Origin: an uncultured Polyangiaceae bacterium
Lineage (GTDB): Bacteria > Myxococcota_A > Polyangia > Polyangiales > Polyangiaceae
Length of the DNA stretch: 37,728 bases
Reading direction: 5' to 3'
Assembly: GCA_964531755.1 (NCBI GenBank)
Contig: CAZHGG010000001.1
Coordinates: 4,446 to 42,173 of the forward strand
The position numbers were made by a program, and so were the translations under genes. The notes under the pieces are model-generated. The model worked only from the letters and a program-made list of their open reading frames with translations. It searched no databases and had not been told where the DNA came from. Numbering within the stretch: the stretch's first letter is position 1; each line of letters begins with the position of its first letter. Shown here in pieces: positions 3,001 through 30,236 of the stretch.

Positions 3001-3858
3001 TGCGGCGAAGGCCCCAAGACCCAGGGCGATCTGATGTTTCCGAGGCACGGCTTCAGCACAGCGGCCTGGGATCCCCCGCGCTGGAGCACGACCGTTGAGC
3101 GCGTCGGCTCCGTCGAGCAGGCGACCATCACTTTCGGACACGGAGACGAGGACGTCGTCGAGTCCTTCGGTGGCATCCCGGGGCTCCGCGCGAAGCACAA
3201 GGAGCTCGGCGAGATTCTCGTCTACAACGAGGGCGAGTGGGGCAAGGGATTCGCCATTTGCACGAAGTGCGGATACGCGGACAGTGAGCCGAAGTACGGG
3301 ACGGGGCGGCTCGATCTCCGGAATGGGTTCGAGTGGCACAGACCCCTCACTCAGGAGCGCGGCAGGTGCTGGGACGACGATACGCCGTCCCCCCTTCGCA
3401 ACCAAACCCTGGCCGCGAGCCAAGTCACCGACGTGCTGCTGCTCGACGTGAGCGGATGCAATGATCTCGCGTTCGCTGCTGCAAAGAGCCAGGCCGTCGC
3501 ACACACGCTGGCGCGCGCGCTTCAGAACGCGGGAGCTCGGATGCTCCAGGTGGACAGCCGCGAGCTCGGAGTGCTCGTGTTGCCGGTCGGCCCCGGGGCG
3601 GCCTTTCAAGCTCCCATCGTGTACGACAACGTGCCCGGGGGTGCCGGGCACGTCCGCGAGCTGATGGACGAGGGGCGCGGCTGGCTCGAGGCAGCGCGTC
3701 AGGTGCTCTACGGATCGCCCGAGCACGACGCGCGCTGCCATCGGGCGTGCTTGGACTGTGTCCTCACCTTCGACGCGCAGACGGCGATGCGCGAGGGGCT
3801 CATCGACCGCCGGCTGGCCCTCGCGGTGCTCGATCGTTGGCTGGGAGCGCGAGCGTGA
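1..3858 (+). CDS. SF2 (DEAD/DEAH-type) helicase with a C-terminal DUF1998/MrfA-like Zn-binding domain. It is 5'-partial: the RecA1/Walker-A half lies upstream of the window. DruE/DrmA-DrmB-like.
   Basis: Frame 1 is open from nt 1, with no stop before the ATG at 64, and no Walker A is present in the window, so the start is upstream. A Cys-rich Zn-ribbon insert is present (CLSPKCPP...CPHCRS...YRCRRCG, about 186-330). Helicase motifs: motif IV-like [12 protein letters not shown] (about 730), motif [14 protein letters not shown], motif [11 protein letters not shown] (about 2035-2061). The DUF1998 hallmark [13 protein letters not shown] lies at about 2686, followed by Cys clusters ([21 protein letters not shown]) up to about 3760. 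Confidence 0.8.
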
Positions 3859-4961
3859 GCGCGCTCACGGTCGAGGAGGTCGACGTGCTGGCTCAGTCCG
3901 CGCGAGCGCCCACCGAGCCCCTTCCGCGCTCCCTCCCCGATTTGCTCTTCCGAGGAGCGCTCCTGGAGCACACGATTCCGGGCCTCTCGTGGCGCGGCTT
4001 CGTGCGGCTCACCCAGGAGGTGCTCCTCCAAACGAACGGCGACGCAGAGGTCTGGGCCCGCGTCGCCTTCGCGCGCGACGTCGGGCGGCGCCACCTGGGC
4101 GAGCGGGCGCTCCTCGAGTGGCCGGTCGTGTCCTCGTGGTTCGCGGCGTTGGACAACAACGCCCAGTCGCGGGCGCTCGCGCATGCCGTCCAGTCCGCAG
4201 CCGACGCTGATCTGGAGGCCGTCGAAGGGTACGCGGCATCCGCGGAGGCGTGGCTCGATCGGGTGCCCGTGACCGCCGAGGCGTTGAGTCTGCGCGGCGC
4301 GGTCGGCCGCGGGTACGCCGCCCTTGGGGAGTACGGGAAGGCCGGGGTCGCGCTCGAGCGCGCGGTCGCGGGTTGGTTCGAGCTCGGGCGCGTCGGCGAC
4401 GCATCGCATCCCCTATGTGAGCTGCTCCGCGTTCGGGGAATTCAGCGAGACGCAGGCGCGGTGACGGTGCTCCGAAATCGGGTGGGCGCGTTCCTCGAGG
4501 CGACGCCCGATCCCACGTCGCGGGCGTTCGTCGAACTGGCCCTCGGCCGCGCCCTCGTCCAGAGCGGTGCGGGTGACGATGGCCAGACCGCCCTCCGTGA
4601 CACGGCGACGGACTGGGGGCAAGCTCCCCCGCATGTCCAGGCGTCGCGCCTTCGATGGCTCCACTACGTCGCAGTCACAAGCGCCGACGACGCGGCCGCC
4701 TCCGAGCACCTCGCCAAGCTTGACGACCTGCGGGACGAGGGGCAGCCGTACGATTCGGACCAGCGCTACGTGGCGCGCGTCGATCGAGGCCTCGCTCAGG
4801 GCTCCGTGCTCACGCCAGACGTCGAGGCGCTCGTCGGGCTCCTCCCCGGAGGTGACGAGGCGGCGAGGACGCTGGTGCGGCTCTCGGGCGGACGGCCGCT
4901 GGCGGACGCGATGAGAGATCGGGCGGTGGTGCGACGGATGGCATGGGAGTATAGGTATTGA
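3855..4961 (+). CDS. Hypothetical alpha-helical (TPR-like) protein, translationally coupled to the upstream helicase.
   Basis: The GTG at 3855 overlaps the helicase TGA (GTGA, 3855-3858). The frame is long with high GC3. Ala/Leu-rich helical repeats are present, e.g. [33 protein letters not shown] recognise no catalytic motif. The start is inferred from the overlap; the ORF track extends it to 3747 inside the upstream gene. Confidence 0.6.
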
Positions 4962-4992: not shown

Positions 4993-7866
4993 ATGAGCCG
5001 GAAGACCCGTTCAGCCAACGCGACCAGCCCAATCCGCCCCGCGCCTCAGAGGACGCAGAAGGCGATCGACAAGGAGCGCCGAAGGGAAGGCAGTGACCTC
5101 GCGGCGAGCGTTGCGGGTTACCATCTCGAAGAGGCGTTTTGGTGCCATCATGTTCTCGACCTTCGACGTCGCATGCGGGTCGCCGTCGAGGCAGTGTTTC
5201 GTCACGTGTTCTGGGTTCGCGAGGGAGATCCCGAAGGGAAAGATCTCAGCACTCTGACGGAGGCCATCCAGCAGCGGGGGGGCGTTCGCTCGGAGGTCAT
5301 CGAGTGGGCGAACCAGTTGCGTCGTTTCGGGAACGAGGCCGCGCACGCGCGAGACCGCGTCCCGCTGCGTCAGCGCATGGAGGACTCTGAGGTCCGCGAT
5401 GCCCTCGAGCTCCTCCGGCGCGTGACGCAGTGGTACTACGGCACGTTCCTCGACGGCGCGCCGATTCCCGCTGCGATCGCGGCGAGCATCGCTTTCCTTG
5501 ATTCTAGGGACGTAGTCGCCGGGCGAATGACCGACGACCAGAGGTTCGGCCATGATCGTCAACTCTTCTTACTCCACGGAAAGTATCAGCTCGAACGTGT
5601 AGAGGGCGTGGGTTCAACAGCGGTCGTATACAAGGCCTTTGACACATTGCTCGAACGTGAACGGGCCCTGAAGGTTCAAACTCTCGAACTCAAGCAAAGT
5701 GAGAAAGCCCTCGAGAACATGCGAAAGGAGGCCAAGCTCCTGAGCGATACGACGCACCCTCGACTCGTTCCCGTGTCATCTGTCGATCGGCTGCCCGACG
5801 GTCGAATCTTCTTCGAGATGCCATTCCTGGTGGGGGGCTCGGTCGCGAGCCGGCTGGCGTCTGCCCCCGCGACCGGACTGGAGCCGAAGACGGCATTCAC
5901 ATGGGCCACCGACCTGATGGACGCGCTGGCGTTCCTCCACGACAAGCAACTTGTTCATCGTGACGTGAAGCCTGAGAACCTGCTCGTCGACGAGACCGGT
6001 CGGGCACAGCTCGCTGACTTTGGGCTCGCACGTACGCTCGATGGCAACGACTTCATTCGCACGCAGACGGTCGCGGGAACCTTTAGGTACCTCGCCCCCG
6101 AGGTGCAGCGTGGTGGTCGAGTAGGTCCCCCGGCAGACGTCTTTTCCGCAGCACTCGTGATTTGCCAACTGCTTGGTGGGGCCATAGACTCCAATGAGCT
6201 CGGTGAAGACCTGCCGCCCTCGGTGCGTGAGGTTCTCAGCGGCATGAGTCGCCAGAACCCGACCGAGCGACAGACCGCACGCGAGGCACTTGAACACATG
6301 CGAGGCTGGGTCGCCGATACCTCGCTCCACGTGCGCATGGAGCAGTGGCGAGAGGCTAGTCGCCTTGTCGGGGGGGCGACGGTCCGTCCCCGCCGCCCCG
6401 CCGCCACCGGAGTGGGGCTGCCACCGGCGGCGTCTCCTCCCGACGGTAACGTTGCGGCCGAACCATTCGTGACGCTGCTGGTCGCGCCAGGGAACCCTCT
6501 CGAAGTTGACATCGAGGTGGACCTCTCCGACTTGGCCGCGAAGCACACGGAGATCGGGCGCACCGAGCCCGCCGACATCGAGCCGGCGGCCGCGGAGGCC
6601 TTCGAAGTGGATGACCCCCACGTCGCTTCGGACACCGAGCTCGAGTTCGAGGACGCGGCGGACCTCGAGCGGAGCCCGTGGGACGGTTCCCCCGAAGCAC
6701 GGGCGTCCGGCGGGGTCGGATCGGAGAGCCAAGGTGATGTCGAGCTCGGCGTCCATGAAAAGCCCCTGACCCCTCCGCAGATTGAGTTCGAGGACGGGAC
6801 GAACCACGGGCCGCGCCTCGGCCAAGGTCCGCCCGAAGCCCGGGCGCGCACAGGGATTGAATCGGAGAACCGACGCGACCTCGAACGGCGCCTCCATCAG
6901 AATCCCCGGGACGCGGTCAGGCTGAACGCGCTCTACAGGGAGTATGAGCGGATGGCGGAGCCCGACTCCCAATGCGCGGTCGCGCAGGTCCTGAGTTACC
7001 TGGGAGCCGCGACTCCGGCACAGGGCGAACTTTGCGAGAGGTATCGTGCCGTGGGGCCCCTCCGCCGCACGACCGTCGTGACGCGCGACGCGTGGAGTCG
7101 ATTGCTCTTCGACATGGCGGATGACTCACCCGTCGGCGAAGTCCTGTCTGTGGTCGTTCCCGCCGTGCTCGACGAGCGGTTCGTCGTTCCGCGTGGGAGC
7201 AGGCCCGCCATCAGCGCGGGGTCGGAGGCCGGGGAAGACCTCCGGGTCGCGCGATCCTTCGCGAGGGCGTCGAGCATTCTCCGCGTTGAGCCGATCGCGC
7301 TGCACCTCTCGCCGGAGTGGGGAGGCCTCGTCGAAGTAGTGCCGCACCTTCGGCGAGGCTCGCGCCTCGGAAAGCTGGCGCTCTCCGGACGTTCGGAGCG
7401 TGAGCTCGCATTCCTCGCGGCGAGGCACCTTGCGTACTTTCGCGAGGAATTCTACATCGCGCTGCTCGTGCCAGACTGGCGTTGGCTCGCGGATGTCTTC
7501 CAGGCTGCGCTCGCCGTAGGCAACCCGGACCACCCCCTCGCAGGCTCGTTCACGGTCCCTCGGGTCGTCGAATCACTGAAGGCGATCCTTGGGCAGCGGT
7601 CCATCGATCTGCTGCGGCAACTCAGCCTTCGCGTCGCGGAGGCGAACGACCGCGTGGACGTCTCCCGCTGGGCGCTTTCGGTGGAGCGCAAGTGCGCACA
7701 GGCCGGTCTGCTTCTCTCGGGCGACCTCAAAGCGGCGGAGGCCGTCTTCGCGCTGGAGGTCGGAGACCGGGCACGGCTCGACGAGAAGATGAACGACCTG
7801 CTGAGCTTCACGCTCTCGGAGCGAGCGAGCAGGCTTCGCAAGGCGCTGGGCATCTCCCTCGCGTAG
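4993..7866 (+). CDS. Three-part protein: N-terminal DUF4145 (HEPN-superfamily) domain, Hanks-type Ser/Thr protein kinase, and an unknown C-terminal domain of about 330 aa.
   Basis: ATG at 4993. The DUF4145-like segment reads LDLRRRMRVAVEAVF...IEWANQLRRFGNEAAHARD; the R..GN.aaH motif is at 5323-5346. Kinase motifs: GVGSTAVVYKA...RALKV, HRDVKPENLLV (5956-), DFGLAR, GTFRYLAPE. An acidic low-complexity linker follows, then a C-terminal region I cannot assign. Confidence 0.88.
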   Translation: MSRKTRSANATSPIRPAPQRTQKAIDKERRREGSDLAASVAGYHLEEAFWCHHVLDLRRRMRVAVEAVFRHVFWVREGDPEGKDLSTLTEAIQQRGGVRSEVIEWANQLRRFGNEAAHARDRVPLRQRMEDSEVRDALELLRRVTQWYYGTFLDGAPIPAAIAASIAFLDSRDVVAGRMTDDQRFGHDRQLFLLHGKYQLERVEGVGSTAVVYKAFDTLLERERALKVQTLELKQSEKALENMRKEAKLLSDTTHPRLVPVSSVDRLPDGRIFFEMPFLVGGSVASRLASAPATGLEPKTAFTWATDLMDALAFLHDKQLVHRDVKPENLLVDETGRAQLADFGLARTLDGNDFIRTQTVAGTFRYLAPEVQRGGRVGPPADVFSAALVICQLLGGAIDSNELGEDLPPSVREVLSGMSRQNPTERQTAREALEHMRGWVADTSLHVRMEQWREASRLVGGATVRPRRPAATGVGLPPAASPPDGNVAAEPFVTLLVAPGNPLEVDIEVDLSDLAAKHTEIGRTEPADIEPAAAEAFEVDDPHVASDTELEFEDAADLERSPWDGSPEARASGGVGSESQGDVELGVHEKPLTPPQIEFEDGTNHGPRLGQGPPEARARTGIESENRRDLERRLHQNPRDAVRLNALYREYERMAEPDSQCAVAQVLSYLGAATPAQGELCERYRAVGPLRRTTVVTRDAWSRLLFDMADDSPVGEVLSVVVPAVLDERFVVPRGSRPAISAGSEAGEDLRVARSFARASSILRVEPIALHLSPEWGGLVEVVPHLRRGSRLGKLALSGRSERELAFLAARHLAYFREEFYIALLVPDWRWLADVFQAALAVGNPDHPLAGSFTVPRVVESLKAILGQRSIDLLRQLSLRVAEANDRVDVSRWALSVERKCAQAGLLLSGDLKAAEAVFALEVGDRARLDEKMNDLLSFTLSERASRLRKALGISLA

Positions 7867-7955: not shown

Positions 7956-9062
7956 TCATCGGCCGCCGCGAGTCCCCTTGACCGCCGGTGCGCCCACAAC
8001 AGCATCGATGTAGTCGCCGGGTAGCCCGCGAGCTGTCGCGCCGTCGACGATGAGCCTCAGGTAATCCTCCGTCGGCCCACACCCGTCCGGGCACCTTGCC
8101 TTCGCGACGAACGTGAAGACCTCGACCGGCTGCGCGTCCCCTCCTCCTGTCACCCGCCACGCGGTCATCTCGCGCTTGGCGTAGCCCCCTTCGCGCCGGG
8201 CGAGCTCGACCGCGTCCTCGGGTGGAACGCTGTAGAGGAAGCCCCACACCATCGAACACGCGGACGTCTCGATGCTCGCGGCGTCGCATCGCCGAGTGAC
8301 GCTGTGCTTGTTGAACACCAGGCGGTGACCCGGCAGGAACGCAATGCCCTCGGCGCGCGCGTTCGGGGCCTTGGCCAACATCTCGCGCTCCGCGAGGTTC
8401 GACCCGTAGGCGAAGTAGGTCTCGGCGGCTTCCCATTCAATCGGCTGCCCCGAAGCCGGTAGCACGAGCCCGCTAAGGGCGTCCATGCGCTGCAGGAACG
8501 CTTCGCGAAGGTGCGGTGCACCGGTGGAGAGATCGCGGACGTATTCGCCGACCTCCGCCTGGATGGCCTCGTGGAACAGCCTCCTGTTGAGGATTCGCGT
8601 CTTGGCGCCCGCGACCTTCGTCAACATCTCGGGAGTGTCGACCCGAACCTTCCAGTCGCCGCGAGTCTCTCCGTTGTGGAGGAGCCCGTTGCGAACGTCT
8701 TGGAAGCCCCAGCGATCGTTCCCGGAGAAGCACGAAAATCGCGGCCCCTTCAGGAATGTGCGGAACGACTTCGCCGTCGTGTTCTCCCCAGTGGTCACGC
8801 GACCTTCGCGGAACGCCTGGAGGGTGTCGATCAGGAGGCAGTCGAGGGCCAAGATCGCGAAGCCAGGAACCAGGCCGTCCCTGCGCCCTGTGCTCGCGAG
8901 GGTGGCGATCGGCCCGAGGAATCGCTCGTCGAGGCGCCGCCGAACGGCGGCCACGACCTCCACCCAGGCCGCGTCGTCGGAGTGTGCGCCTTCCAGGCGG
9001 CCGCGAAGCTCGAGGTAGCGGCTAACCGGGAAACCCGATGCAAGCTCGGTCGTCAGATCCAT
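7956..9062 (-). CDS. Two-domain protein: N-terminal alpha-helical domain with an HEPN-type RNxxxH motif, and a C-terminal gamma-glutamylcyclotransferase (AIG2/GGCT-like) domain.
   Basis: ATG at 9062 overlaps the upstream gene's stop by 10 nt. RNGLLH is encoded at 8676-8693 (CGC AAC GGG CTC CTC CAC on the minus strand). The C-terminal YFAYGSNLAEREMLAKAPNA...GHRLVFNK...VWGFLYSVPPEDAVELARREGGY...EVFTFV follows the YGSL/GGCT-fold pattern (about 7990-8420). Confidence 0.8.
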   Translation of the reverse strand: MDLTTELASGFPVSRYLELRGRLEGAHSDDAAWVEVVAAVRRRLDERFLGPIATLASTGRRDGLVPGFAILALDCLLIDTLQAFREGRVTTGENTTAKSFRTFLKGPRFSCFSGNDRWGFQDVRNGLLHNGETRGDWKVRVDTPEMLTKVAGAKTRILNRRLFHEAIQAEVGEYVRDLSTGAPHLREAFLQRMDALSGLVLPASGQPIEWEAAETYFAYGSNLAEREMLAKAPNARAEGIAFLPGHRLVFNKHSVTRRCDAASIETSACSMVWGFLYSVPPEDAVELARREGGYAKREMTAWRVTGGGDAQPVEVFTFVAKARCPDGCGPTEDYLRLIVDGATARGLPGDYIDAVVGAPAVKGTRGGR

Positions 9063-11701
9063 CGTCCGAGCTCGTTTCTCGCCTGCACGCGCCCTGTAGG
9101 CTCAATACCCCAAGCATGGGCCGCCGCTCGAGCGGCGACGGCATACTTCGAGTCCGCGAGCCATCTCCGCCGCACGACGTCATTGCGCCTCTGGCGAAGG
9201 TACTGTGAAAGCTCGGAGTTCGCCCGAACGAAGTCCGCTAGATGAACGACATCGCCCTCTGGCCCAGTGGCGAGAGGAAGGTCGAGAGTACTTGTCGAAT
9301 ACTCCGGGAGACGGTCCCTTTCCTCGGCCCTGTAGAGGAGCCTCATCCACAGCGAGATCCAGCCGAGAATCTTCTGTCCATCAACTGTTCCACTATGAAG
9401 ACGAACTTCGATCGTGCCCATCCCTCGTTCGTCAAATAGTGGGCGAGGATTAACGGTAAGATATCTTCGACTCAGGTGCTCTAGAAAGTGTTTCTGCCAG
9501 TCATCCATCGTCGGGAAAGACAACAGTTGTTCAACATGCTGTCGAATCGGCTCGCAGCTCGGGTTCCATCCGCGCGACGGAGCGACCAGGCTGTAGAGCG
9601 CAGGCTCATAGTATGAAACTAGCTGCATGAGCCTTCGCAGCGCACGAAGGTCCTTGTTCCACGCGAAGTGAACATGGGTTCCCGTCTTCGGAGTGCTGAC
9701 CGACAGCCCGAGGCGTTTTGCTGCCGACTGAAGAGCATTGCAGGCTCGAACGACTTCTCGGTACCCGGCCTCCCCGCGCAATATGCGACTCGTCACTTCC
9801 CATCCGCAGCTGCTGTCCCACTCGACGTTCCACACCTCGTGGTTCTTGTCTTGTTCGTGATACTCCTCGCGGGGCTGCGCTGCCCTCTCTGTCTGGGGAA
9901 TCGACCGAAGCAGCGCGGTCGCGACCCTTAGCCAGTCAGGAGGCTTCTCGCCCGTGAAGTCGCTTCGGGTAAACTCAAATTCGATTCCGAAGTCCTGCTT
10001 CGGCTGAAGGTCGAAGCCAGCGATGCCCTCATACCCTTCGCAGAGCGCTATGTGCTCGAAGCGGGCCGGCTCGAAGGTGTACATTGGCGCTCGCGTCGCC
10101 GACTTGCCGCCCCGGCTGTCCGACCCCATCGGGTCGAAGAAGTGCTTGGGGGAAACAAGGACGTCGCCATGACGCGTCAAGGCGTCCTCGAAGTCGACGA
10201 TTCGGAACCCGTCCTTTCCTGGCGCCTTCCTCACTGCACGGCCGACCATTTGCGCAAACAGCGTCATGCTCGCCGTCGGGCGGGCCAAGAACACGGTCTT
10301 GATGCCGGGGATGTCGATGCCGTGCGTCATCATAGCGACGTTCACGAGGACGCAGGTGCGCTTCGTCTTGAACAGGTCGATCGCGGCGCGCCGCTCTTCG
10401 GGCCGCAGCGCCGAGTGGACCACGCCAACGGCAACGCCGCGCATCTTCAGCGCAGAAAATAGTCCCATCGCGTGCTGGATGTTGCAGGCAAAAATGAGCG
10501 TCTGCCCGTACCGCTCCCTGCCGTTGATGTAGGTGTCCACGATCATCCGAGTGCGTCGAGGGTCGTTCGCGAGCTCCGTGAGCGACGCCGTAGTAAAATC
10601 GCTGTAGCTGCTTCGCCGTACAGGGGCCCACGAGACGCGAGTCTTCACCGGAGGCTCTGGAAGCCTCGGCGCGAGCACGTCCATCCTTGCCAGGGTCGGG
10701 TAGTCGTATTCGCAGCCAACGAGGCGGAAGCCCGTCCCTTGGCGCGGCGTCGCCGTGAGGCCAACGAAGACGGCCTCGGGGTATGCCTTGAGCAGCCCGC
10801 GGTACGCCTGCTTGCCCTCACCCCAATGAAGCTCGTCGATGATCACGGTGTCGAAGGAGACCCCGGCGAAGTCCTTGTGCTTGCGGCGCCGCCACATGTG
10901 AATTGTCGTGTACGTGACGACGGCATCCGACCGAGGCGTGCGGCCGAAGAACTGGGCGGGCTCGCCCACGTGGCCAACGTATGCGCGCTTCCACCGTCGG
11001 CAGAGGTCGGTGGCCGCCTGCCGCAGGAGCGCCCAGTCCTTGGTGATCCAGAGGACGCGCCGTCCTTCCGTCAACGCGTGCGCGCCGATCCAGTCGTTGG
11101 CGATACGGGTCTTCCCTCCGCCCGTGGCCACGGTGATTCGGAGCCGACTTCGTCGAGTCGCGCGTGCTACCGCGAGCGCGAGCTCGCGCGTCAGCTCGCG
11201 CTGAAACGAATAGGGCTCGAAGCGCGAAGCCTCCTCGTTGAACTCAAGGTCGGAGGGGTCGGAGTCGTCTTCCAGGTCGTCAGGTGCCGAGTCGTCGTCG
11301 TCGAGGGCCTGCAGTCCGTCATCGGACTCTTGCTTCTCTTCGTCCTCTTCCGCTGCCGCGCTTCCCGACCCCGCGAAGCTCGAGAGTCGAACGAGCTCTG
11401 GAGGTGCCTGATTGTCGCGGAAACAGGCGAGCGCGATCCGAACGAGTTTGGCCTTGGAGTAAGTCGCATCCGGGAGGTGATAGGTCCCGCCGTCGCCGTC
11501 CGTGAGGTTAGCGAGAAGCACGCGGAGGTCCTGCTCGCGCAGGTCCCCAAAAAGTCGTTCATGGTCACCCCGATACGAACGCGCGAGCCGCTCGCGCTTC
11601 GCGACGATGCCGGCCTCCACGCCTCGAACGCGACATAGCCGGTCGATCGCGGCTCGGTCCGCGATCTTCAAGACGTCCAAGAGACTTCGGATCGTGACCA
11701 T
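9053..11701 (-). CDS. Fusion protein: N-terminal HeH/SAP-like segment and acidic linker, SF2 helicase (type III restriction res-subunit-like), and a C-terminal Amidoligase_2 (glutamine-synthetase-fold COOH-NH2 ligase) domain.
   Basis: ATG at 11701 is preceded by GGAGG. Helicase motifs: ITVATGGGKT (Walker A), VIIDELHWG (DExH), GLTATP, QMVGRAVRK (about 10171-11209). The C-terminal domain (about 9316-9991) reads FGIEFEF, WNVEWDSSCGWEVTS, GTHVHF, GTIEVRLHSGT, which matches the order and pattern I recall for Pfam Amidoligase_2. Confidence 0.85.
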   Translation of the reverse strand: MVTIRSLLDVLKIADRAAIDRLCRVRGVEAGIVAKRERLARSYRGDHERLFGDLREQDLRVLLANLTDGDGGTYHLPDATYSKAKLVRIALACFRDNQAPPELVRLSSFAGSGSAAAEEDEEKQESDDGLQALDDDDSAPDDLEDDSDPSDLEFNEEASRFEPYSFQRELTRELALAVARATRRSRLRITVATGGGKTRIANDWIGAHALTEGRRVLWITKDWALLRQAATDLCRRWKRAYVGHVGEPAQFFGRTPRSDAVVTYTTIHMWRRRKHKDFAGVSFDTVIIDELHWGEGKQAYRGLLKAYPEAVFVGLTATPRQGTGFRLVGCEYDYPTLARMDVLAPRLPEPPVKTRVSWAPVRRSSYSDFTTASLTELANDPRRTRMIVDTYINGRERYGQTLIFACNIQHAMGLFSALKMRGVAVGVVHSALRPEERRAAIDLFKTKRTCVLVNVAMMTHGIDIPGIKTVFLARPTASMTLFAQMVGRAVRKAPGKDGFRIVDFEDALTRHGDVLVSPKHFFDPMGSDSRGGKSATRAPMYTFEPARFEHIALCEGYEGIAGFDLQPKQDFGIEFEFTRSDFTGEKPPDWLRVATALLRSIPQTERAAQPREEYHEQDKNHEVWNVEWDSSCGWEVTSRILRGEAGYREVVRACNALQSAAKRLGLSVSTPKTGTHVHFAWNKDLRALRRLMQLVSYYEPALYSLVAPSRGWNPSCEPIRQHVEQLLSFPTMDDWQKHFLEHLSRRYLTVNPRPLFDERGMGTIEVRLHSGTVDGQKILGWISLWMRLLYRAEERDRLPEYSTSTLDLPLATGPEGDVVHLADFVRANSELSQYLRQRRNDVVRRRWLADSKYAVAARAAAHAWGIEPTGRVQARNELGRWI

Positions 11702-11707
11702 CAGATT

Positions 11708-11712
11708 CCTCC
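11708..11712 (-). promoter_or_regulatory. Shine-Dalgarno (GGAGG) for the helicase-amidoligase gene.
   Basis: The minus strand reads GAGGGGAGGAATCTG-ATG, a perfect GGAGG 6 nt upstream of the ATG at 11701. It lies in the 50-nt gap after the brxHI stop (11752). Confidence 0.6.
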
Positions 11713-11751
11713 CCTCGCAGACCGATTCGAGCGCCCCGTTGCCCTGGGTCG

Positions 11752-14700
11752 CTACCCGTCGTCCCCCTCAGGCACCTTCACCTTCCCCTTCGTCGTGGAC
11801 GCCACGCCCATCGTCTCGAGCTCCGCCCCTGGGGCCAACGATAGCGTGCGCGCGACGAACACCTCGCGTCGGCCGCTCGCGTGGCTGTACGAGCACGACA
11901 GCACCGGCGCGAGCGAAATCGGTGCTCCGCTGGGGCGGAGTAGGTAGCACCAGTTCTCCAGGAGCTTGCCTTGGACCCGTTCCTCGCGGACAGGGAAGTG
12001 ATCACTCCCGCCTTGAAGCACGCGAACCTGGTAGCGAGCCGGGCCGCCCGACACGTCGAAGTCCTGGAGAACGACGCGGACCACAAGCTTGAGCTCGGAG
12101 AGCCCCTCGAGCGCCTGCTCGAAGCGACGCCAAAGGGCATGCAACGCGTGCTCAGCCTGCGCGACGGCCTCCTCGTTCCGCGTGACCGCGTGAGAGAACA
12201 CGTTTCGCGCTGGAACGACCGTTTCGAAAATCTCCTTCGTGAGGTCCGACTGCTTCCCGTCGGCCGTCACCAGCGCACGACCTGGCCGGCTCGCCGGGTC
12301 CAAACCTCCCGGCGGCAACAATGCCGCCAGGCGCCACGCGAGCTCGAGCCAGGTGCCCATCGAGATCGGGCGGCGCAGGTCCTCCGTGATGAGCACGCGT
12401 GCTTGTTCGGGCAGTTGGCCGTCGTTGGTCGAACGGAGAAGCCCAAGCTCGACACCCACCAAGAACGTGAGCGCCTTCTCGAAGGCATCTCGCAGGGTCT
12501 TCACGCGAAGGACGACGTTCTCCTGACTCTCCACGAGGCCGTCGAACACGGCGATGGGATACGGAAGCACGCTTGGAGTCGACGTACCCGATGCCGGAGT
12601 CGTAGCAAGCGCAACATGAGCAGAAGACCGCGCCGCCGGAAGGACCTCCACGGGAAGCTCCGGAACCGCCGGTGGGACCGCCTCCGCGGCCCGTTCCGGA
12701 GCGGCGACCACCTCTTCCGCCACGTTCGCGGCGGAGAGCTCCCGAGCGCCCCCTAGCTCGCGCAGGACAGGCACGTGGTGCCCACACGCCTGCCCCAGCC
12801 AGCGCACGGTCCCCGCCACGTCCAGGAGGTAGCTCTCGACCACCTCCAAGGCGAACTTCTCGGGCAAGCAGTCCTGGAACTTGGAGAGCCGATACTCGGG
12901 CAGCCTCGCGAGCACCGCTCGCCGCGTGTCCGGGTCCGACCAGAAGGCCGGTGTGGCCATCCGCGCGATCGCCTTCCGGACGCTCTCGTGCCCAATTCCG
13001 TCGCCATCGATTCGGAGCTGAAAGTTGTCCGCCATCACCTTCCAACCCTCGGCCACCTCGAAGCCGTACTTGAGAGTGTGGTTCACCTGCCCGCCCGCGA
13101 ACGTCCACCAGAGCGCGACGCCCCCATCGAGCTGCACGGCGTGCCCATCGCGCCGAAGGAGCTCACCGAGATCGGCGCGCTTCTCCTCGATGTGCTTCCA
13201 CGCCACGTCGTCCACATACGGGTAGCGCGCGCTCTCGGTGAGGGCGCGCTTCATGCGCTGGCAGACATCGAGCCCGAGGTGCTGCGGGAGGTAGCCTCCC
13301 CAGCTTGGCTTCATGCCACGCGGCGCCTCGCGAACGACCACCTCACGATCTTCGTGGCTCACGCGGTCGACTGTCCATGCACGGCCACCAAGCAAGAACG
13401 AGCTCATTTGCTCGACCAGGCGATCGACGAAGCCCTGCTCCAGCGAGCCGACATCTCGCCTCGTGTGCCTGACGACTCGGTAGAGCTTCGGCGACGAGAA
13501 CACCGCGTAGAGCTCCAGGAAGTTCTTCTTCCCGAAGCGCTTCTCGGCCTTCTCGCCCATCGAGAGGAGCCCGTCCGCCTCGAAGAGGAACTGCTCCTTC
13601 TTCATGTGAAGGATCGCTTCGTCGTACTCCGCGCGAGTGATGGCGCGAAAGTCGGGCACGCGTGCGAGCTGCTCCCAGATGCGGTCGGCGCCAATGGCGC
13701 CGAACTGGAGCGTCATCGCGAGCACCTGGTGCACCAAGACAGGCCAACATCGCTCCTGCTTGGTCACGCGCTCGACCCACCCCTCGCGGGCGAGCTCGAC
13801 GAGCGCGACCGCCTGGAGCACGGACTCGGGGTCTTCGCAGAGGAACGCCGTGTTCGGACGCGTGCCCGCGCGCCTCCCCGTCCGGCCCATGCGCTGCATG
13901 AAGGACGAGACCGTGCTCGGCGCGTTCGCCTGGAAGACGAGATCGAGATCGCCCACGTCGATGCCGAGCTCGAGGGTCGACGTGCACACGATGCACGCGT
14001 TCGTCCCGTGGGCGAAGCGATCTTCGGCGGCCCTTCGCTCCTCCAACGAAACCGAGCTGTGATGCACGAACACGTCGATCTCGCGCCCGCGCATCCTCTC
14101 GGCGACCACCTCGGTGAGCGCCCGCGACTGGCAGAAGAACAAGCTCTTCTTGTTCGACGCCCGTCTCGCGGCGGCGGTCGCGACACCCGCCACGCTCTCG
14201 TGAAGTCCGATGGAGAGGTCGCGCTTGGCGGGGATCTTCGGCGGATCGACGACCACGCCCTCACGCTTGGACGAACCGCCGAGCCACGCGAGGATGTCGT
14301 GGGGATTGCCCACGGTGGCCGACAGTCCGACACGCTGAAGATCGTTTTGGCTTAGCGGCGCGAGTCGCTCGAGGACCGACATCAGGTGCGCCCCGCGATC
14401 GGTCCCCGCGAGCGCGTGAACCTCGTCGATCACCACGAGACGAAGGTCCTTGAAGAGCCGAACCACGGGGGAGCGAGGCGACACGAGCATGACCTCGAGC
14501 GACTCCGGCGTGGTCATGAGGATCTCGGCGGGCTCCCTCACGAACCGACGCCGCTCACCATCGGGGACGTCCCCGTGCCAGACGAAGCGCCGCAAGCCGA
14601 CCATCTCGGCGTACGTCCCGAGCCGCTCCTCCTGGTTGTTCAACAGGGCTTTGATGGGCGCGATGTAGAGGACCCCCACGCCGTCGGGCTCGCGCTCCAC

Positions 14701-14889
14701 CAGGCCCGCGAGCGCGGGGAAGATGGACGCTTCGGTCTTTCCTCCCGCGGTGGGCGCGAGCGCGACGACGTTCTTCCCGTCGAGGATGGCCTCCCCAGCG
14801 AGCTCCTGCACAGGGCGGAGCGAGGTCCACCCGAGGCGCGAGACGATCGCCTGTTGAAGGCGGGGCGGAAAGCGGGCGAACGCGGTCAT
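11752..14889 (-). CDS. brxHI: BREX Lhr-like DEAD/DEAH helicase BrxHI with a non-helicase C-terminal extension of about 330 aa.
   Basis: The N-terminus, FPPRLQQAIVSRLGWTSLRPVQELAGEAILDGKNVVALAPTAGGKTEA, is Lhr-type. Further motifs: VVIDEVHALAGTDRGAHL (DEVH), LGIDVGDLDLVFQ, FMQRMGRTGRR. ATG at 14889 overlaps the upstream stop (ATGA). Its position after brxD matches BREX types 2 and 6. Confidence 0.85.
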   Translation of the reverse strand: MTAFARFPPRLQQAIVSRLGWTSLRPVQELAGEAILDGKNVVALAPTAGGKTEASIFPALAGLVEREPDGVGVLYIAPIKALLNNQEERLGTYAEMVGLRRFVWHGDVPDGERRRFVREPAEILMTTPESLEVMLVSPRSPVVRLFKDLRLVVIDEVHALAGTDRGAHLMSVLERLAPLSQNDLQRVGLSATVGNPHDILAWLGGSSKREGVVVDPPKIPAKRDLSIGLHESVAGVATAAARRASNKKSLFFCQSRALTEVVAERMRGREIDVFVHHSSVSLEERRAAEDRFAHGTNACIVCTSTLELGIDVGDLDLVFQANAPSTVSSFMQRMGRTGRRAGTRPNTAFLCEDPESVLQAVALVELAREGWVERVTKQERCWPVLVHQVLAMTLQFGAIGADRIWEQLARVPDFRAITRAEYDEAILHMKKEQFLFEADGLLSMGEKAEKRFGKKNFLELYAVFSSPKLYRVVRHTRRDVGSLEQGFVDRLVEQMSSFLLGGRAWTVDRVSHEDREVVVREAPRGMKPSWGGYLPQHLGLDVCQRMKRALTESARYPYVDDVAWKHIEEKRADLGELLRRDGHAVQLDGGVALWWTFAGGQVNHTLKYGFEVAEGWKVMADNFQLRIDGDGIGHESVRKAIARMATPAFWSDPDTRRAVLARLPEYRLSKFQDCLPEKFALEVVESYLLDVAGTVRWLGQACGHHVPVLRELGGARELSAANVAEEVVAAPERAAEAVPPAVPELPVEVLPAARSSAHVALATTPASGTSTPSVLPYPIAVFDGLVESQENVVLRVKTLRDAFEKALTFLVGVELGLLRSTNDGQLPEQARVLITEDLRRPISMGTWLELAWRLAALLPPGGLDPASRPGRALVTADGKQSDLTKEIFETVVPARNVFSHAVTRNEEAVAQAEHALHALWRRFEQALEGLSELKLVVRVVLQDFDVSGGPARYQVRVLQGGSDHFPVREERVQGKLLENWCYLLRPSGAPISLAPVLSCSYSHASGRREVFVARTLSLAPGAELETMGVASTTKGKVKVPEGDDG

Positions 14890-15662
14890 GCGCCGCGCAA
14901 GCGCTGGTCAGTCTCGTTCATGAGACTCACGAACCTATCCATGGCCTCTTCACGGCGACTGAGAGCGTAGTCGAGCCACTCCTCGACAGAGGCATCCGAG
15001 GGCTCGTTGCTAGCCGCCTCCAGCCGAACGTGCATTCGATAGTGCTTGTAGTGGGGTTCAAGCGTTGCGAGCCCAATGCCGAACCGCTGGCACTCGCGAA
15101 CCACCTTGTCGAGCCTTGGATCCGAGAGCGTGAATCCCTTCTCTGGCCACTCCAGGAGGACGAACCCCTCGTGCGCGAACCGTGCGTGCGAAGCTGCTTC
15201 AAAGACAGCGTTCACGTCCCATACGCCCCACTGCTTAACTTCGAATGTCGTCAGCAGAACGCGGCGCTTGCGAAGCGTGGGATAGACCTCGACCGACACC
15301 TGAGTCACGTCGGGATTTTGCCACTTCCCCCGCTTGCGTAGCGACGCCGTGTCGAACGCAAGGCTCTCTGGTGAGTCTCGCTGAATGGCATCGACAAGCG
15401 GCGCGTATAGGTCCTTCTCCTTCTCGACCGAGGAGGTCGTTTCGTACTTGGGCGAGACCTCCCGCTCGCCCTTCCTCGTGAGACGTAGGCCGCCACCACG
15501 ACAGACGTACTTCTCCGCAAGTTCTTCGTGGATGACAGAGGCGCGAACCTCGTCGTAACGCTCATCGCCAAGGCTCAGCTCGAGCTTTATTCGTGCATTG
15601 GAGAGTCCGCCAGTCTCGGCCAGAAGATTCAGAACTCGCTCGCGGTCGCTGGGTCGTGCCAT
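14886..15662 (-). CDS. Hypothetical protein with an N-terminal winged-helix-like domain and a PD-(D/E)xK nuclease-like core. It is a non-canonical insert between brxD and brxHI.
   Basis: ATG at 15662 lies 3 nt after the brxD TAA, and the stop overlaps the brxHI ATG. The N-terminus, RERVLNLLAETGGLSNARIKLELSL...RLTRKGE, looks wHTH-like. The core reads E..LYAPLVDAI, then NPDVTQVSVEV, then TTFEVKQW (D118, E141-x-K143; about 15234-15311). The gene is visibly less GC-rich than its neighbours. Confidence 0.65.
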   Translation of the reverse strand: MARPSDRERVLNLLAETGGLSNARIKLELSLGDERYDEVRASVIHEELAEKYVCRGGGLRLTRKGEREVSPKYETTSSVEKEKDLYAPLVDAIQRDSPESLAFDTASLRKRGKWQNPDVTQVSVEVYPTLRKRRVLLTTFEVKQWGVWDVNAVFEAASHARFAHEGFVLLEWPEKGFTLSDPRLDKVVRECQRFGIGLATLEPHYKHYRMHVRLEAASNEPSDASVEEWLDYALSRREEAMDRFVSLMNETDQRLRGA

Positions 15663-15665
15663 TGT

Positions 15666-17036
15666 TTAAAACTCCACGGAGGTTTCGGGATAGCCCTTCT
15701 CGTCGTCGGGCTCGGGATCGTACGGGATGGCCTTCTTCCCCTCCGAGGCGCGCTGCTCTTCGATGGTATCGGGTCGCGGGGGCAGCGGAGGCAGCGGGGG
15801 CAGCCGCATGTCCGGGTTCTCTACCACCCAATCGAAGTCGTTCACGAGTCGCCTCATGAACTGCCTCGGGACCACTCCAACCTCGCCGCCCAGTCCCTTC
15901 GACACGTGGTCCACGAGCTGCTCGATCCGCTCGGGTGTGACGTTCTTCGCGACGATGTTCGGATCACCCCCTGGGTAGAGCTCGCGGAGGCGAAGCCCGA
16001 CGTCCTTCAGACGCGCTCGGTCGAACGGGCGCAGCTCGAGCTGCGGCTGCCGCATCGTCACGAGCCCTCCCTCGTTGAGAAAGCGGATACGATCGTGGAG
16101 CGGCTGGAGGCCCGCCACTCCGCGCCGCGTGTCGAAGAACTCCGGCGTCCCGGTGAAGACCCAGAGCAGACCCTCGAAGCTGTCCGCGTTGTCGATGATC
16201 TGACGAATGCCGTTCAGCGACTTGCCACGAACGTCGCCGCGCATCCGAAGGATGGTTTCGGCCTCGTCGACCACGACCACGAGCCCTTCGTAGCCGGCAG
16301 CCTTCACCACGGCGAGGATGCCGCGGAGGTAGTGCATCGCGTCGGTGCTCGTGATCTCGCCACGGATACCCGCGCTCCGCTTCTCGGCCGCGCTCACGTT
16401 TTCGCTCCCCGAGAGCCACGAGAGCAACGCGCCCGCTTCGCGCACCTTCCCGGCTTGCTTCAACGAGAAGATCTCACGAAGCACGCGGCCGAGGTCTTCG
16501 GGCGCCTTCCCGCCGGTGAGAGAGCGAATGTCCTCTTCGATTCGCTTCTGCACCTTCTGGTCGAAGTCCGGAGCGCTCTCGTCCGCGCCGCCTGCGACGA
16601 GCGCGTTCTCCACCTTCGCGATCCATCGGTCGATGATGTCGCCGAGCGCGCCGCGAGGGCATGAGCTGGTCCCGAGCTCCTGGACCACGCGGCGGTAGAG
16701 GTCCTCGAACTTGTGCAGGTGAAAGTCGTTGTCGGAGACCACCACGAAGCTCGTGGCGAACCCCAAGCCCGGCGTGCTCGTGGGCGCGGGCGTGGGCGTT
16801 CGTCGATAGTGCTGCGCGTCGAGCACCGCCAGCCTGGCCATGAAGGTCTTCCCGCAGCCGTATCCGCCACGCAAGAACTTGAAGACCCCTTCGCCGGACG
16901 CCGCCAACGTGAGGAGTCTCGTGATCTCGGCGTGCTGCCTCTCGACTCCGACAGCAAACGCCTCGAGCCCGCGCTCCGGGACGACTCCGGAGCGAAGGCG
17001 CTCGAAGATGTGCTCGCGATCTCGTTGGCTTATCAT
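15666..17036 (-). CDS. brxD: BREX ATP-binding protein BrxD (DUF2791 P-loop ATPase).
   Basis: The internal ATG at 17036 overlaps the pglZ TGA (ATGA). The N-terminus reads MISQRDREHIFERLRSGVVPERGLEAFAVGVE...FKFLRGGYGCGKTF (Walker A), with VVVVDEAE as Walker B. The 135 codons upstream in the ORF track are Arg-rich and overlap pglZ. Confidence 0.85.
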   Translation of the reverse strand: MISQRDREHIFERLRSGVVPERGLEAFAVGVERQHAEITRLLTLAASGEGVFKFLRGGYGCGKTFMARLAVLDAQHYRRTPTPAPTSTPGLGFATSFVVVSDNDFHLHKFEDLYRRVVQELGTSSCPRGALGDIIDRWIAKVENALVAGGADESAPDFDQKVQKRIEEDIRSLTGGKAPEDLGRVLREIFSLKQAGKVREAGALLSWLSGSENVSAAEKRSAGIRGEITSTDAMHYLRGILAVVKAAGYEGLVVVVDEAETILRMRGDVRGKSLNGIRQIIDNADSFEGLLWVFTGTPEFFDTRRGVAGLQPLHDRIRFLNEGGLVTMRQPQLELRPFDRARLKDVGLRLRELYPGGDPNIVAKNVTPERIEQLVDHVSKGLGGEVGVVPRQFMRRLVNDFDWVVENPDMRLPPLPPLPPRPDTIEEQRASEGKKAIPYDPEPDDEKGYPETSVEF

Positions 17037-22900: not shown

Positions 22901-24094
22901 CGCCACGAGCAGATCGAACGCAATCACCAAGAAGTGCCCGCTCCCACACGCGGGGTCGAGCAGCTTGATGTCGCGCACCGACCGAGGCGCCCGCGCCACC
23001 GCGTCGTCGGGGATGGCCTGGGGTACGTAATATTTCCAGTGCTCCTCGAGCTCGCCCTCGAGCGGCATCAGCGCGTCGAGCGGCATCTCCCCCGCCTCGC
23101 GCTTCGCTCGCCACTCGGCACGACGCGCGTCGAGCAGGGGCAACACACGCTCGGCGTCCGCGGTCCACCCGTGCTTCTTGCACATGGCCAGCCACGTGAG
23201 GCCGAGGCTGTTCTGGAGGAGCCACTCCACCATGTACCGCTCGGTGAACATCTGCGTCTTCGAGGCGATTTCGTGCGGCTCGATCTTGCCGCCCCCGGCG
23301 ATCTTGTCGTCCAGCGCCTCGCGGTCCGGATCGTTCCAATACTGGTAGACCCAGCCGAGGGTCGTCTCGTCCTGCCAGGCGCTCTCGAGCCCGGGGTCGT
23401 CCAGGCGCTCGACCACCTCGCGCAGCGTGGCCGCGGGAATGCCGAAGAGCCGCGTGAGCCCCACGTCGCCGAAGAGGCCCGGCAGGTCCACTGCCAGCTC
23501 GTCGAACACGAGCTGGAGCAGCACCGCGTAACCCTCGGTCTCGTCGTTCGTTCCCCCGCCGCAGAGGGCCGGCGCGAACTCGCGAAGCTCGCGGTAGCCT
23601 TTGCTGTTCCAGCCGCCGGTGAGCACAGCGGGCTTGGAGAGCCCGAGGGCCTCGAGCTGGCGCAGGAGCACGAGCCGGTTCAGCAGGGTCGCCGCCGCTT
23701 CTTTCTCGGCCTGCGCGAGGAGACGCTCCTTGATGGCCAAGAGCTCGCTCGGGCGAACGGGGGCGCCGGCCTTGGCGGGCTTGGCCGACTTGCCGGCCTT
23801 GGCGGGCTTGACGGAGGCCGAGGAGGCCGAGGGGGTGGGAGCACCGAAGCCGGCCCGCGCCCGCGCGTCCAGAGTGGCCTCGATGCGCAGGCGTCGCTCT
23901 CGGTGCGCCTCGTCGAGGCCTGCCTTCTCGAGGGGAACCGAGAGCCGGTAGCGCCGATCGGCCTCGTCGTGAATGGCACGCAGAAGCCGCGCGCGGAGTC
24001 CCTTGTTCGCGCTGTCGTGCGACGAGGTGCCGCGGATAGTCTCGGCGAGGAGCTTCTTGGCTTCTGGGGTGAGGCGAGGGAGGTCGTTCACCAT
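19985..24094 (-). CDS. pglX: BREX adenine-specific DNA methyltransferase PglX.
   Basis: Motif I is LLDPACGSGHFLV and motif IV is VVGNPPYQG. Size is about 1369 aa. The ATG at 24094 (MVNDLPRLTPEAKK) overlaps the stop of the upstream small ORF by 1 nt (TGATG). The 77 further upstream codons in the track are Arg/Gly-rich and I reject them. Confidence 0.92.
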   Translation of the reverse strand: MVNDLPRLTPEAKKLLAETIRGTSSHDSANKGLRARLLRAIHDEADRRYRLSVPLEKAGLDEAHRERRLRIEATLDARARAGFGAPTPSASSASVKPAKAGKSAKPAKAGAPVRPSELLAIKERLLAQAEKEAAATLLNRLVLLRQLEALGLSKPAVLTGGWNSKGYRELREFAPALCGGGTNDETEGYAVLLQLVFDELAVDLPGLFGDVGLTRLFGIPAATLREVVERLDDPGLESAWQDETTLGWVYQYWNDPDREALDDKIAGGGKIEPHEIASKTQMFTERYMVEWLLQNSLGLTWLAMCKKHGWTADAERVLPLLDARRAEWRAKREAGEMPLDALMPLEGELEEHWKYYVPQAIPDDAVARAPRSVRDIKLLDPACGSGHFLVIAFDLLVAMYREEARHLGADLTDKAIAESILENNLHGLDIDPRAIQIAAAGLFLKAKSLAKGCRPKRVNLVAPVLQLGNLPADDPAVSALRRDLKREVGIPEELTQKLLTSLAGVDYLGSLLKVDAAVEGAIRDVEVELLRAHGQGDLFGGFATEAVKMTAEEAKATVLDKLEVFLAGHSRSEDLGLRLDGEQLAAGVRFVRLAKEGAYDVVVGNPPYQGLTKASGAFGYVATHYPRGKADLYAAFLERGLEFVREGGISALVTMRGWMFLGQFAELRKRLLETYDLRSIGDFDRGAFDEVPNEVLAVSVPVFRRAPHPGVPSVATQPTPLDDRSYDRARTGRKRAAVLAQVGRFEFDPRGFGVIEGEPVVYWWSREFLAEYRELPSFGSKYSGRAGMATQDNPRYVRMAWEVPVFAPKTAQRDGWVAFITGAKGREWIEPLTVVLRWHATGLEMKVRHEHAYRSISKYIPSESKYFEPGIAFCTTGATFSARSHRYPSVFSNVGSTVFAGAASHYVVCVLNSLRARRLLSDFNPSVHFELSDVARLPLFPLSKTETIFSTLDTSFSEHESHREPSVEFLSPGPSAWTYAQAWAQLAVDRPEGAPLPPYEPVYETARPEDHVSFAVGLALGRFPLEGPPSGVPLLFVSPEGPDSLDLPACAPLLEAWKGHGAHVGQGDSLRTYLRKSFFDFHKKLYENRPIYFPLSSSKRSFVALVSIHRWADDTLNVLLADHLMPAKRRLEGELDDLRTARAASNATGAAKSKAEKRFTEVQKLTEELGDFIAKVTELAEKGAPPSDDKTQPRERDARFAMDLDDGVMVNSAALWPLLEPQWKDPKKWWKELANAPAGGGAKKDYDWSHLAARYFPTRVRAKCHEDPSLAVAHGCFWELHPAKAYAWELRLKDEIRPDFTIDEPGSDEARARFLAEHAEEAQEALAKEMKRREKKNAKADAENEGDDAGAGPLFDGEASDDEGEGADA

Positions 24095-30207: not shown

Positions 30208-30236
30208 CGGGCGAGGAGCCTACGCCCTCCTTGGCG

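Follow-up and report, generated by a model that had tools for sequence, protein, structure and literature searches.

What is the role of two genes that lie directly at the 3′ end of a bacteriophage exclusion (BREX) operon but fall outside every defined BREX gene set? This question is raised by a stretch of 37,728 nucleotides from an uncultured Polyangiaceae bacterium (contig CAZHGG010000001.1, positions 4,446 to 42,173), referred to here as the window, whose own numbering is used for all coordinates. The first of the two genes encodes a superfamily 2 (SF2) DExH helicase fused to an Amidoligase_2 domain (called the fusion here), and the second one encodes a partner protein composed of an N-terminal domain (N-domain) followed by a gamma-glutamylcyclotransferase (GGCT) domain. 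An original prediction, read from the DNA letters, had taken the pair for a candidate undescribed system attached to the BREX operon, with a ligase and a hydrolase of gamma-glutamyl bonds and a possible suicide RNase of the HEPN type. We find that the pair is best explained as a mobile two-gene cassette that closes a type 6 BREX operon at its 3′ end, not as BREX components. In our reading, it is a cellular version of the amidoligase-GGCT cassette of phages, tethered to a helicase and moving between defense islands.

Structure of the gene pair

Both genes are located on the minus strand of the window, which has a GC content of ∼67%. Their features are as follows.

7956-9062, minus strand: partner gene, N-domain plus GGCT, 368 amino acids (supported by the open reading frame [ORF], homologues, and adjacency in relatives)
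7995-8423, minus strand: GGCT/AIG2-like domain of the partner, amino acids 214-356 (supported by Pfam, Foldseek, and the family profile)
8454-9062, minus strand: N-domain of the partner, amino acids 1-203 (a large family with near-invariant R43, R47, C75, R124, and H129)
9053-11701, minus strand: fusion gene, SF2 helicase-Amidoligase_2, 882 amino acids (supported by the ORF, Pfam domains, and verified motifs)
9056-9340, minus strand: C-terminal tail of the fusion, amino acids 788-882 (conserved)
9341-10000, minus strand: Amidoligase_2 domain, amino acids 568-787 (PF12224; glutamine-synthetase-like ATP-dependent COOH-NH2 ligase)
10187-11221, minus strand: SF2 DExH helicase/translocase core, amino acids 161-505 (ResIII plus Helicase_C)
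11387-11701, minus strand: N-terminal module of the fusion, amino acids 1 to ∼105 (conserved only in the subclade that has the N-domain-GGCT partner)
11708-11712, minus strand: ribosome-binding site GGAGG, separated by 6 nt from the ATG at 11701

The start of the partner gene shares 10 nt with the end of the fusion gene (ATGGATCTGA), suggesting that the two are translationally coupled. The fusion gene in turn starts 50 nt after the stop of brxHI (position 11752), on the same strand, and the GGAGG read from the sequence lies 6 nt 5′ of its ATG. A consensus scan found no terminator-like site in this 50-nt gap, although the terminator/promoter scan as a whole was uninformative in DNA of 67% GC, and the pair, being contiguous with the BREX operon, is probably cotranscribed with it. 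The gene coordinates, the overlap, the gap, the GGAGG, and every motif position listed in the original prediction were borne out. With more than 100 homologous protein clusters sharing the architecture of the fusion and 99 homologous clusters for the partner, neither gene is a chance ORF; both represent real protein families.

A predicted DNA motor with a fused amidoligase domain

The Amidoligase_2 profile (PF12224) matches residues 568-787 of the fusion with an E value of 5.8e-16 and 59.5 bits, compared to a cutoff of 22, and the match spans positions 2-243 of the 245 in the profile. The ligase motifs are found at residues 571-577 (FGIEFEF), 624-638 (WNVEWDSSCGWEVTS), 674-679 (GTHVHF), and 762-772 (GTIEVRLHSGT). 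In an alignment of 33 diverse homologues, residues E574, E576, D629, E635, H676, E699, R710, E765, and R767 are invariant, as expected of a working ligase of the glutamine synthetase fold. They include the ExE strand, HxH, and E.R residues of a glutamine-synthetase-like active site, which in this fold would bind metal and ATP. The predicted Amidoligase_2 identity is thus confirmed by a profile match above threshold and by the invariance of the active-site residues. The same alignment shows a second set of invariant positions in the region of the C-terminal tail (W781, L784, W785, D817, W847, and W864), even though the tail matches no Pfam family. When the amidoligase domain alone was used as the query, essentially only fragments of fusions were returned and no free-standing close clade was found, indicating that this ligase clade lives fused to the motor. 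GC content drops to 0.587 over the amidoligase domain (positions 9001-10000), compared to 0.65 to 0.68 on either side, which may be a trace of foreign origin.

The helicase part was predicted to be complete, and this is the case. Pfam identifies ResIII at residues 161-320 (E value, 4e-15) and Helicase_C at residues 392-492 (E value, 2.8e-15), both above the curated cutoffs, and SF2 motifs I, II (DExH), III, and VI are all present, with ATGGGKT at 192-198, DELH at 289-292, LTATP at 315-319, and QMVGRAVR at 484-491. Residues T193, G196, K197, D289, E290, H292, T318, Q484, G487, R488, and R491 are invariant in the 33-member alignment. The solved structures nearest to this core are RadD (6jde), a 953-amino-acid helicase (7clg), which is presumably the type IV enzyme SauUSI, and the type I restriction subunit HsdR (3h1t). 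The best PADLOC matches of the helicase are mREase_IV (E value, 6e-19) and REase_I (E value, 2e-12), while the NCBIfam model of RadD reaches 80.7 bits, far under its family cutoff of 720.

N terminal of the core, an alignment of fusion N termini shows a common pattern, IRxLLDxL..AIDRLC..RGV...LARSYRGDHE..DLR..DL..LL. The Pfam SAP domain (PF02037) is found in the aligned region of four relatives (P0053, P0058, P0072, and P0085), and the module of the window fusion itself has no Pfam match; judging from this alignment, the module is possibly SAP-like and DNA binding. Among species-representative genomes, the fusion is found mainly in metagenome-assembled genomes (MAGs) of Myxococcota, Planctomycetota, and Bdellovibrionota and less often in a few Gammaproteobacteria and Geobacter. 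In several of these MAGs, the fusion gene is split into two ORFs or shortened (L014, L030, L038, L040, and L044).

A cyclotransferase partner with an additional N-terminal domain

The C-terminal half of the partner was predicted to have a GGCT/AIG2 fold, and both profiles and structure agree with this. Pfam AIG2_2 matches residues 272-353 (E value, 6.2e-10; 39.8 bits compared to a cutoff of 27) and GGACT matches residues 216-323 (E value, 1.6e-5; 25.9 bits compared to a cutoff of 22.8). In an AlphaFold model of the partner, with a predicted local distance difference test (pLDDT) score of 89.5, residues 214-356 superpose on human GGCT, which Foldseek retrieved (3cry/2rbh) with an E value of 8e-11 and a template modeling (TM) score of 0.78. 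A family profile matches human GGCT with an E value of 8e-25, the YFAYGSNL segment at residues 216-223 has the same letters in the human enzyme, and the Glu of the human DEQEG segment, which we take to be the catalytic Glu98, has the invariant E291 as its counterpart in the alignment. GGCT domains of the same subfamily were also seen in metagenomes inside much larger ORFs (L132, 8396-15145; L142, 9950-12394; L151, 837-2807).

The N-domain belongs to a large family, for which an exhaustive profile search returned 1,775 representatives at an E value of ≤1e-3 and 1,087 at ≤1e-10, most of them stand-alone proteins of ∼200 amino acids. Among the top 141 representatives, 16 carry a GGCT domain, one has a marginal match to DUF6495 (E value, 6e-4), and the remainder lack any Pfam family, leaving GGCT as the sole recurrent partner of the family. 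In two loci (L182 and L183), an apparently stand-alone N-domain gene is followed by an overlapping, separate GGCT gene. In three others (L167-169), it is a nucleoside 2-deoxyribosyltransferase domain, not GGCT, that is fused to the N-domain (about 3767-5007 in L167), and a remnant of the displaced GGCT is found just downstream in another frame (hidden Markov model E value, 4e-20), a domain replacement caught in the act. Taken together, the 16 fused representatives, the overlapping genes, and the remnant show that the N-domain and GGCT form a functional unit of their own. The N-domain-deoxyribosyltransferase gene in these three loci adjoins a PD-(D/E)XK gene.

With respect to the nature of the N-domain, the predicted HEPN motif stood, whereas the predicted HEPN domain did not. 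The RNGLLH segment (Rx4H) is located at residues 124-129 (nucleotides 8676-8693), and R124 and H129 are conserved, together with R43, R47, and C75, in at least 90% of 142 diverse relatives. The window domain and two relatives matched nothing in Pfam at an E value of ≤10, nor was the domain matched in NCBIfam or PADLOC, and the HEPN models of Pfam were matched by none of the 141 family representatives. An AlphaFold model of the N-domain alone (pLDDT, 89.6; predicted TM score, 0.87) is mainly alpha-helical, but the motif helix is followed by a three-stranded sheet that is foreign to the HEPN core. When this model was compared with the Protein Data Bank (PDB) by Foldseek, the best match had an E value of 1.9, with TM scores of ≤0.25, and HEPN was absent among the 57 matches listed; the viral models of BFVD likewise gave no match (best E value, 0.13). 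HEPN domains are divergent, so that a structural nonmatch is a strong but not an absolute negative. Given that the motif alone does not make a HEPN domain, we rejected the HEPN identity as unsupported.

The possible suicide RNase of the original prediction loses its footing with the HEPN domain. According to this explanation, the N-domain would be a HEPN RNase that serves as an abortive-infection toxin under the control of the amidoligase and GGCT, in keeping with the near-invariant R124/H129 pair and accompanying arginines, with the mainly helical fold, and with HEPN-like elements elsewhere in the window (a DUF4145 match in a kinase protein and RNVFSH in an extension of BrxHI, both described below). 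Besides the failure of a confident model and of all three profile libraries to find a HEPN relative, and the sheet outside the HEPN core, the behavior of the family makes this highly improbable: its members mostly stand alone, their neighborhoods are unremarkable, without a recognizable antitoxin (L170-172, L182, and L183), and the fact that N-domain and GGCT occur in such ordinary surroundings, with no evident immunity gene nearby, speaks against a suicide toxin.

Recurrence of the pair and its amide-bond neighbors

The two genes are adjacent in the closest relatives of the pair, as the original prediction had anticipated. In L083, the fusion is followed by an N-domain-GGCT gene right after type I restriction-modification (R-M) genes and an NB-ARC/TPR STAND NTPase. 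The same pair, with an overlap of 11 nt between the genes, occurs in L084-86, where it is flanked by the BrnT/BrnA toxin-antitoxin genes and by type I R-M with an SLFN/AlbA_2 ATPase. Adjacency is also seen on short contigs (L173-175) and in L179/180, where the N-domain gene is truncated, and contigs of equal length suggest three further pairs (P0003/P0125, P0005/P0126, and P0055/P0193). In the 48 fusion loci from species-representative genomes, on the other hand, no N-domain was found beside the fusion. A metagenome scan with the partner alignment added little information on pairing, since it returned mostly generic solo GGCT genes, which share the YFAYGSN pattern.

Distant fusions repeatedly have other enzymes of gamma-glutamyl or N-acyl-glutamate bonds as neighbors: solo GGACT (L006) or GGCT (L007 and L030), tandem GGCT (L181), FGase (L028 and L029), and, in L026, a poly-gamma-glutamate hydrolase (Gamma_PGA_hydro) upstream and a diphthamide-synthase-like PP-loop enzyme (Diphthami_syn_2) downstream. 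The presence of such enzymes beside distant fusions supports a glutamyl ligase/hydrolase chemistry and strengthens the predicted logic of making and cleaving gamma-glutamyl bonds. Most other neighbors of the fusion have no recognizable domain and are unrelated to one another; the genes downstream of other fusions showed no homology to each other or to genes of the window, and an all-versus-all clustering of the fusion flanks yielded no generally conserved neighbor.

These neighbors also bear on a different explanation, namely, that the fusion is a DNA-activated small-molecule enzyme that makes or consumes a gamma-glutamyl metabolite (acting, for example, on polyamines, like PuuA on putrescine), with GGCT, FGase, or the poly-gamma-glutamate hydrolase recycling the product. 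Ligases of the glutamine synthetase fold act mostly on small molecules, GGCT and GGACT enzymes have free gamma-glutamyl amino acids and amines as their substrates, the partners found next to the fusion are all hydrolases of small molecules or oligomers, and the N-domain-GGCT unit occurs alone in ordinary neighborhoods. Nevertheless, a purely metabolic role hardly accounts for the covalent fusion to a RadD/HsdR-type motor, seen in more than 100 clusters, and close relatives in the amidoligase clade are almost never free-standing, so that we regard this explanation as unlikely.

Defense surroundings and relation to BREX

The cassette and its relatives recur among genes of restriction, BREX, Gabija, STAND, and toxin-antitoxin systems. 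Apart from the loci described above, Gabija adjoins the fusion in L037, a type ISP-like R-M enzyme in L181, an MmeI-like enzyme (type IIG R-M) in the case of fusion P0049, and a BrxHI/SngC-like helicase in L013, while integrases, helix-turn-helix genes, and transposases are common near fusion genes. From this context, defense against phages or mobile DNA, or the modulation of such defense, would be the most likely role of the pair. The expectation that neither gene belongs to a named defense system holds for PADLOC-DB v2, in which there is no system-specific model for either gene and only generic similarity at the level of the helicase domain.

An alternative without any defense role is that the fusion, as a RadD-like helicase, serves in DNA repair or maintenance in predatory or soil bacteria with large genomes and resides in variable regions by chance. 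The repair helicase RadD is the best NCBIfam and PDB similarity of the fusion, many fusion loci have metabolic or unknown neighbors, and its taxonomic spread is limited to Myxococcota, Planctomycetota, Bdellovibrionota, and few others. We nonetheless consider this alternative rather unlikely, given the wide gap between the RadD score and the family cutoff, the patchy distribution of the fusion, its nonconserved neighborhoods with integrases and transposases, and the R-M, BREX, Gabija, STAND, and toxin-antitoxin genes that recur beside it.

The BREX operon of the window lies upstream of the pair on the minus strand and was assigned to type 6 by PADLOC, with the following genes.

29617-30207, minus strand: brxE (PADLOC)
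within 28138-29415, minus strand: brxB (PADLOC)
24459-28109, minus strand: brxC (PADLOC)
19985-24325, minus strand: pglX (PADLOC)
17033-19891, minus strand: pglZ (PADLOC)
15666-17441, minus strand: brxD (PADLOC)
14886-15662, minus strand: 258-amino-acid ORF between brxD and brxHI (no library match)
11752-14889, minus strand: brxHI (PADLOC)

Of the genes that define type 6 (brxE, brxA, brxB, brxC, pglX, pglZ, brxD, and brxHI), brxA was not identified, since PADLOC gave no match for the ORF at 30204-30635, the sole candidate scanned between brxE and brxB; the assignment therefore rests on the seven other genes. The 258-amino-acid ORF is absent from the canonical type 6 gene list and had no match in Pfam, PADLOC, or NCBIfam. 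BrxHI itself is 1,045 amino acids long, and its last ∼345 residues (∼700-1045; 11752-12792, minus strand) lie past the stretch that either PADLOC profile of BrxHI matches; this extension contains an R-x4-H-like motif, ARNVFSHAV, and has no Pfam match.

Whether the pair is a dedicated BREX accessory, i.e., a modulator or extra effector that acts with BrxHI and PglZ on BREX-recognized DNA, can be judged from both the window and other loci. In the window, the pair follows brxHI by 50 nt on the same strand, with no terminator-like site in the gap. Elsewhere, an independent, distant fusion directly follows the pglZ and brxA-like genes of a type-3-like BREX, which also has an SNF2 helicase upstream (L018, a planctomycete, and L017, a myxobacterial MAG), so that a second BREX type carries the fusion in two phyla, and the fusion in L013 has the BrxHI/SngC-like neighbor mentioned above. 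However, the window and L017/L018 are the only cases of BREX beside a fusion in ∼45 contexts examined, and a tblastn search with the BREX proteins of the window found none in the 48 fusion loci beyond helicase-level similarity. The closest relatives of the pair adjoin type I R-M, STAND NTPase, and toxin-antitoxin genes without BREX, showing that the pair is not BREX specific. The BREX models of PADLOC do not cover either gene: the single match, to the Helicase_C part of BrxHI, is confined to residues 399-493 of the fusion (E value, 1e-10), and the partner has no PADLOC match. A dedicated BREX accessory thus appears quite unlikely, and the original description of the pair as attached to BREX, while correct for the contiguity in the window, was overstated, as most of the ∼45 contexts lack BREX.

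Comparison with known systems

The pairing of an amidoligase with GGCT is not new in itself. Iyer, Abhiman, Burroughs, and Aravind (Mol Biosyst 2009) are said to have described a conserved neighborhood of amidoligase and AIG2/GGCT genes, often joined by a GAT-like peptidase, in phages and Firmicutes. We found amidoligase and GGCT within a DNA-metabolism module of Geobacillus phage GR1; GGACT, amidoligase, and GAT in Arthrobacter phage Waltz, with a DNA helicase gene ∼1.3 kb upstream; and the amidoligase-GGCT pair in Clostridium prophages. Amidoligase genes have also been found within thymidine-hypermodification clusters of phages (PMC8989533). As in the window, the two families stand side by side in the same orientation in the phage cassette, and the catalytic residues of the amidoligase are conserved. 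In contrast to the phage cassette, the window amidoligase, which shares only 25 to 30% identity with the phage enzymes, forms one protein with a complete SF2 DNA helicase that has a putative SAP-like N terminus; the GGCT partner has an extra domain of 200 amino acids; there is no GAT-like gene; and the pair sits in defense islands of cellular genomes. The fusion was absent from the best 80 IMG/VR matches, from GenBank phages, and from PLSDB plasmids, where only the helicase part or distant stand-alone amidoligases were found. No literature linking an amidoligase with BREX, with a helicase fusion, or with defense was found, although Iyer et al. 2009, which this search did not cover, may mention the fusion. 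The claim of an undescribed system accordingly holds for the helicase fusion, the extra N-domain, and the defense-island setting, which are new, but not for the pairing of amidoligase and GGCT, which is already known from phages.

Two other kinds of systems offer partial parallels. The Pup ligase PafA, the depupylase Dop, and the gamma-glutamyl-polyamine synthetase PuuA, a group that forms gamma-glutamyl amides, would share with the fusion the glutamine-synthetase-like fold of an ATP-dependent carboxylate-amine ligase and, by analogy, a writer/eraser logic on gamma-glutamyl-lysine or gamma-glutamyl-amine bonds. No sequence match of the fusion to these families was obtained, and, unlike in PafA/Dop, no gene for a Pup-like tag was seen and the eraser would be a cyclotransferase (GGCT) rather than a paralogue of the ligase. 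The helicase cores most similar to that of the fusion are those of type I HsdR and SauUSI-like type IV enzymes, which likewise combine a DNA motor with a C-terminal effector domain and are located in defense islands. The fusion differs from them in having an amide ligase as the effector, with no PLD, PD-(D/E)XK, or HNH domain, and in lacking methyltransferase and specificity subunits of its own.

Proposed mechanism

We tentatively propose, with a probability of about 0.4, that the motor engages DNA, that the ligase forms a gamma-glutamyl-type amide on a DNA-associated amine, and that GGCT removes it. The SF2 motor, being similar to RadD, HsdR, and type IV enzymes, would bind or track along DNA; both its activity and its DNA specificity are deduced from these relatives. 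At the expense of ATP, the fused amidoligase would then couple a glutamate-type carboxylate with an amine of a DNA-associated target; candidate acceptors are a lysine of a protein, a polyamine, and a modified base that bears an amine. The product would be a gamma-glutamyl-type amide, as suggested by the chemistry of the family and of the neighboring genes. The GGCT domain of the partner may cut such gamma-glutamyl-amine bonds with the release of 5-oxoproline and could thereby limit, reset, or further process the modification. The N-domain, which habitually works with GGCT, possibly contributes substrate recognition or a second catalytic step. In this scheme, the fusion would be the writer and the partner the eraser.

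It is also conceivable, if somewhat unlikely, that the pair represents a new effector chemistry of prokaryotic immunity, a modification-dependent “type IV restriction by ligation” in place of cleavage, in which a restriction-type motor would deliver the glutamate ligase to invading DNA and the GGCT-type eraser would protect or reset the host. Covalent gamma-glutamylation could in that case hit a phage protein or polyamines bound to the DNA, or else the primary amines that hypermodified phage bases carry.

Several points weigh against the proposed glutamylation of DNA-associated targets. In species-representative genomes, a recognizable amide-bond enzyme is missing next to around 80% of the fusion loci, so that the fusion is evidently able to work or persist alone, and many of these loci have metabolic or unknown neighbors. 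The N-domain-GGCT protein conversely occurs without the fusion. In Bryobacter aggregatus (JNIF01000004.1; L081, 8001-9188), it is found inside a PRTRC-type mobile element that contains Prok_Ub, PRTRC_E, SSB, DUF3150, and radical SAM genes; in L176-178, it lies beside an iSirtuin-nSTAND NTPase, a resolvase, and ParG, with GmrSD and SIR2 genes nearby in L177; and it occurs as split genes in L182 and L183. The specificity of the amidoligase for glutamate is one that we infer, and the enrichment of defense islands around the pair is an impression gained from the contexts rather than a statistic. Finally, the split or shortened fusion genes of several MAGs could be due either to assembly error or to gene decay.

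Other genes of the window

Upstream of the BREX operon, the plus strand encodes a second SF2 helicase (34513-36981; 822 amino acids). It is a paralogue of the helicase of the fusion, with 30% identity over ∼360 amino acids (E value, 5e-30), and its nearest solved relatives are likewise RadD, 7clg, and HsdR; the C-terminal half of ∼390 amino acids differs and has no assignment. An ORF that overlaps it on the other strand (34204-36258, minus strand) is probably a shadow.

Convergent with the pair, a 957-amino-acid protein (4993-7866, plus strand) contains a Ser/Thr kinase resembling the defense kinases PD-T4-6 and MAD6. It has a weak match to DUF4145 (E value, 4e-4; under the cutoff), a family that we take to be classed as HEPN, and its C-terminal ∼500 amino acids have no assignment. 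Similar kinases occur near several distant fusions (L001, L042, L047, and L055). The co-occurrence of Ser/Thr kinases with the fusion (these four loci plus L008 and L027) was set aside, since kinases are very abundant in these phyla.

At the start of the window, a DruE-like helicase that carries an MZB (MrfA Zn-binding) domain at its C terminus (64-3858, plus strand) is followed by a 404-amino-acid ORF (3747-4961, plus strand) with no match in any library; the two may be part of another defense system.

Implications

If the fusion does modify DNA-associated targets, amide ligation (glutamylation) would join the short list of effector chemistries of bacterial immunity, and the fusion would offer a first functional handle on the amidoligase/GGCT/GAT cassettes of phages. 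For BREX, the pair represents a candidate accessory cassette that follows two different BREX types at their 3′ ends. The analysis also flags the N-domain family, with ∼1,800 representative clusters, no Pfam model, and no fold match, whose conserved Arg, His, and Cys residues and exclusive partnership with GGCT suggest an unrecognized enzyme of gamma-glutamyl metabolism.

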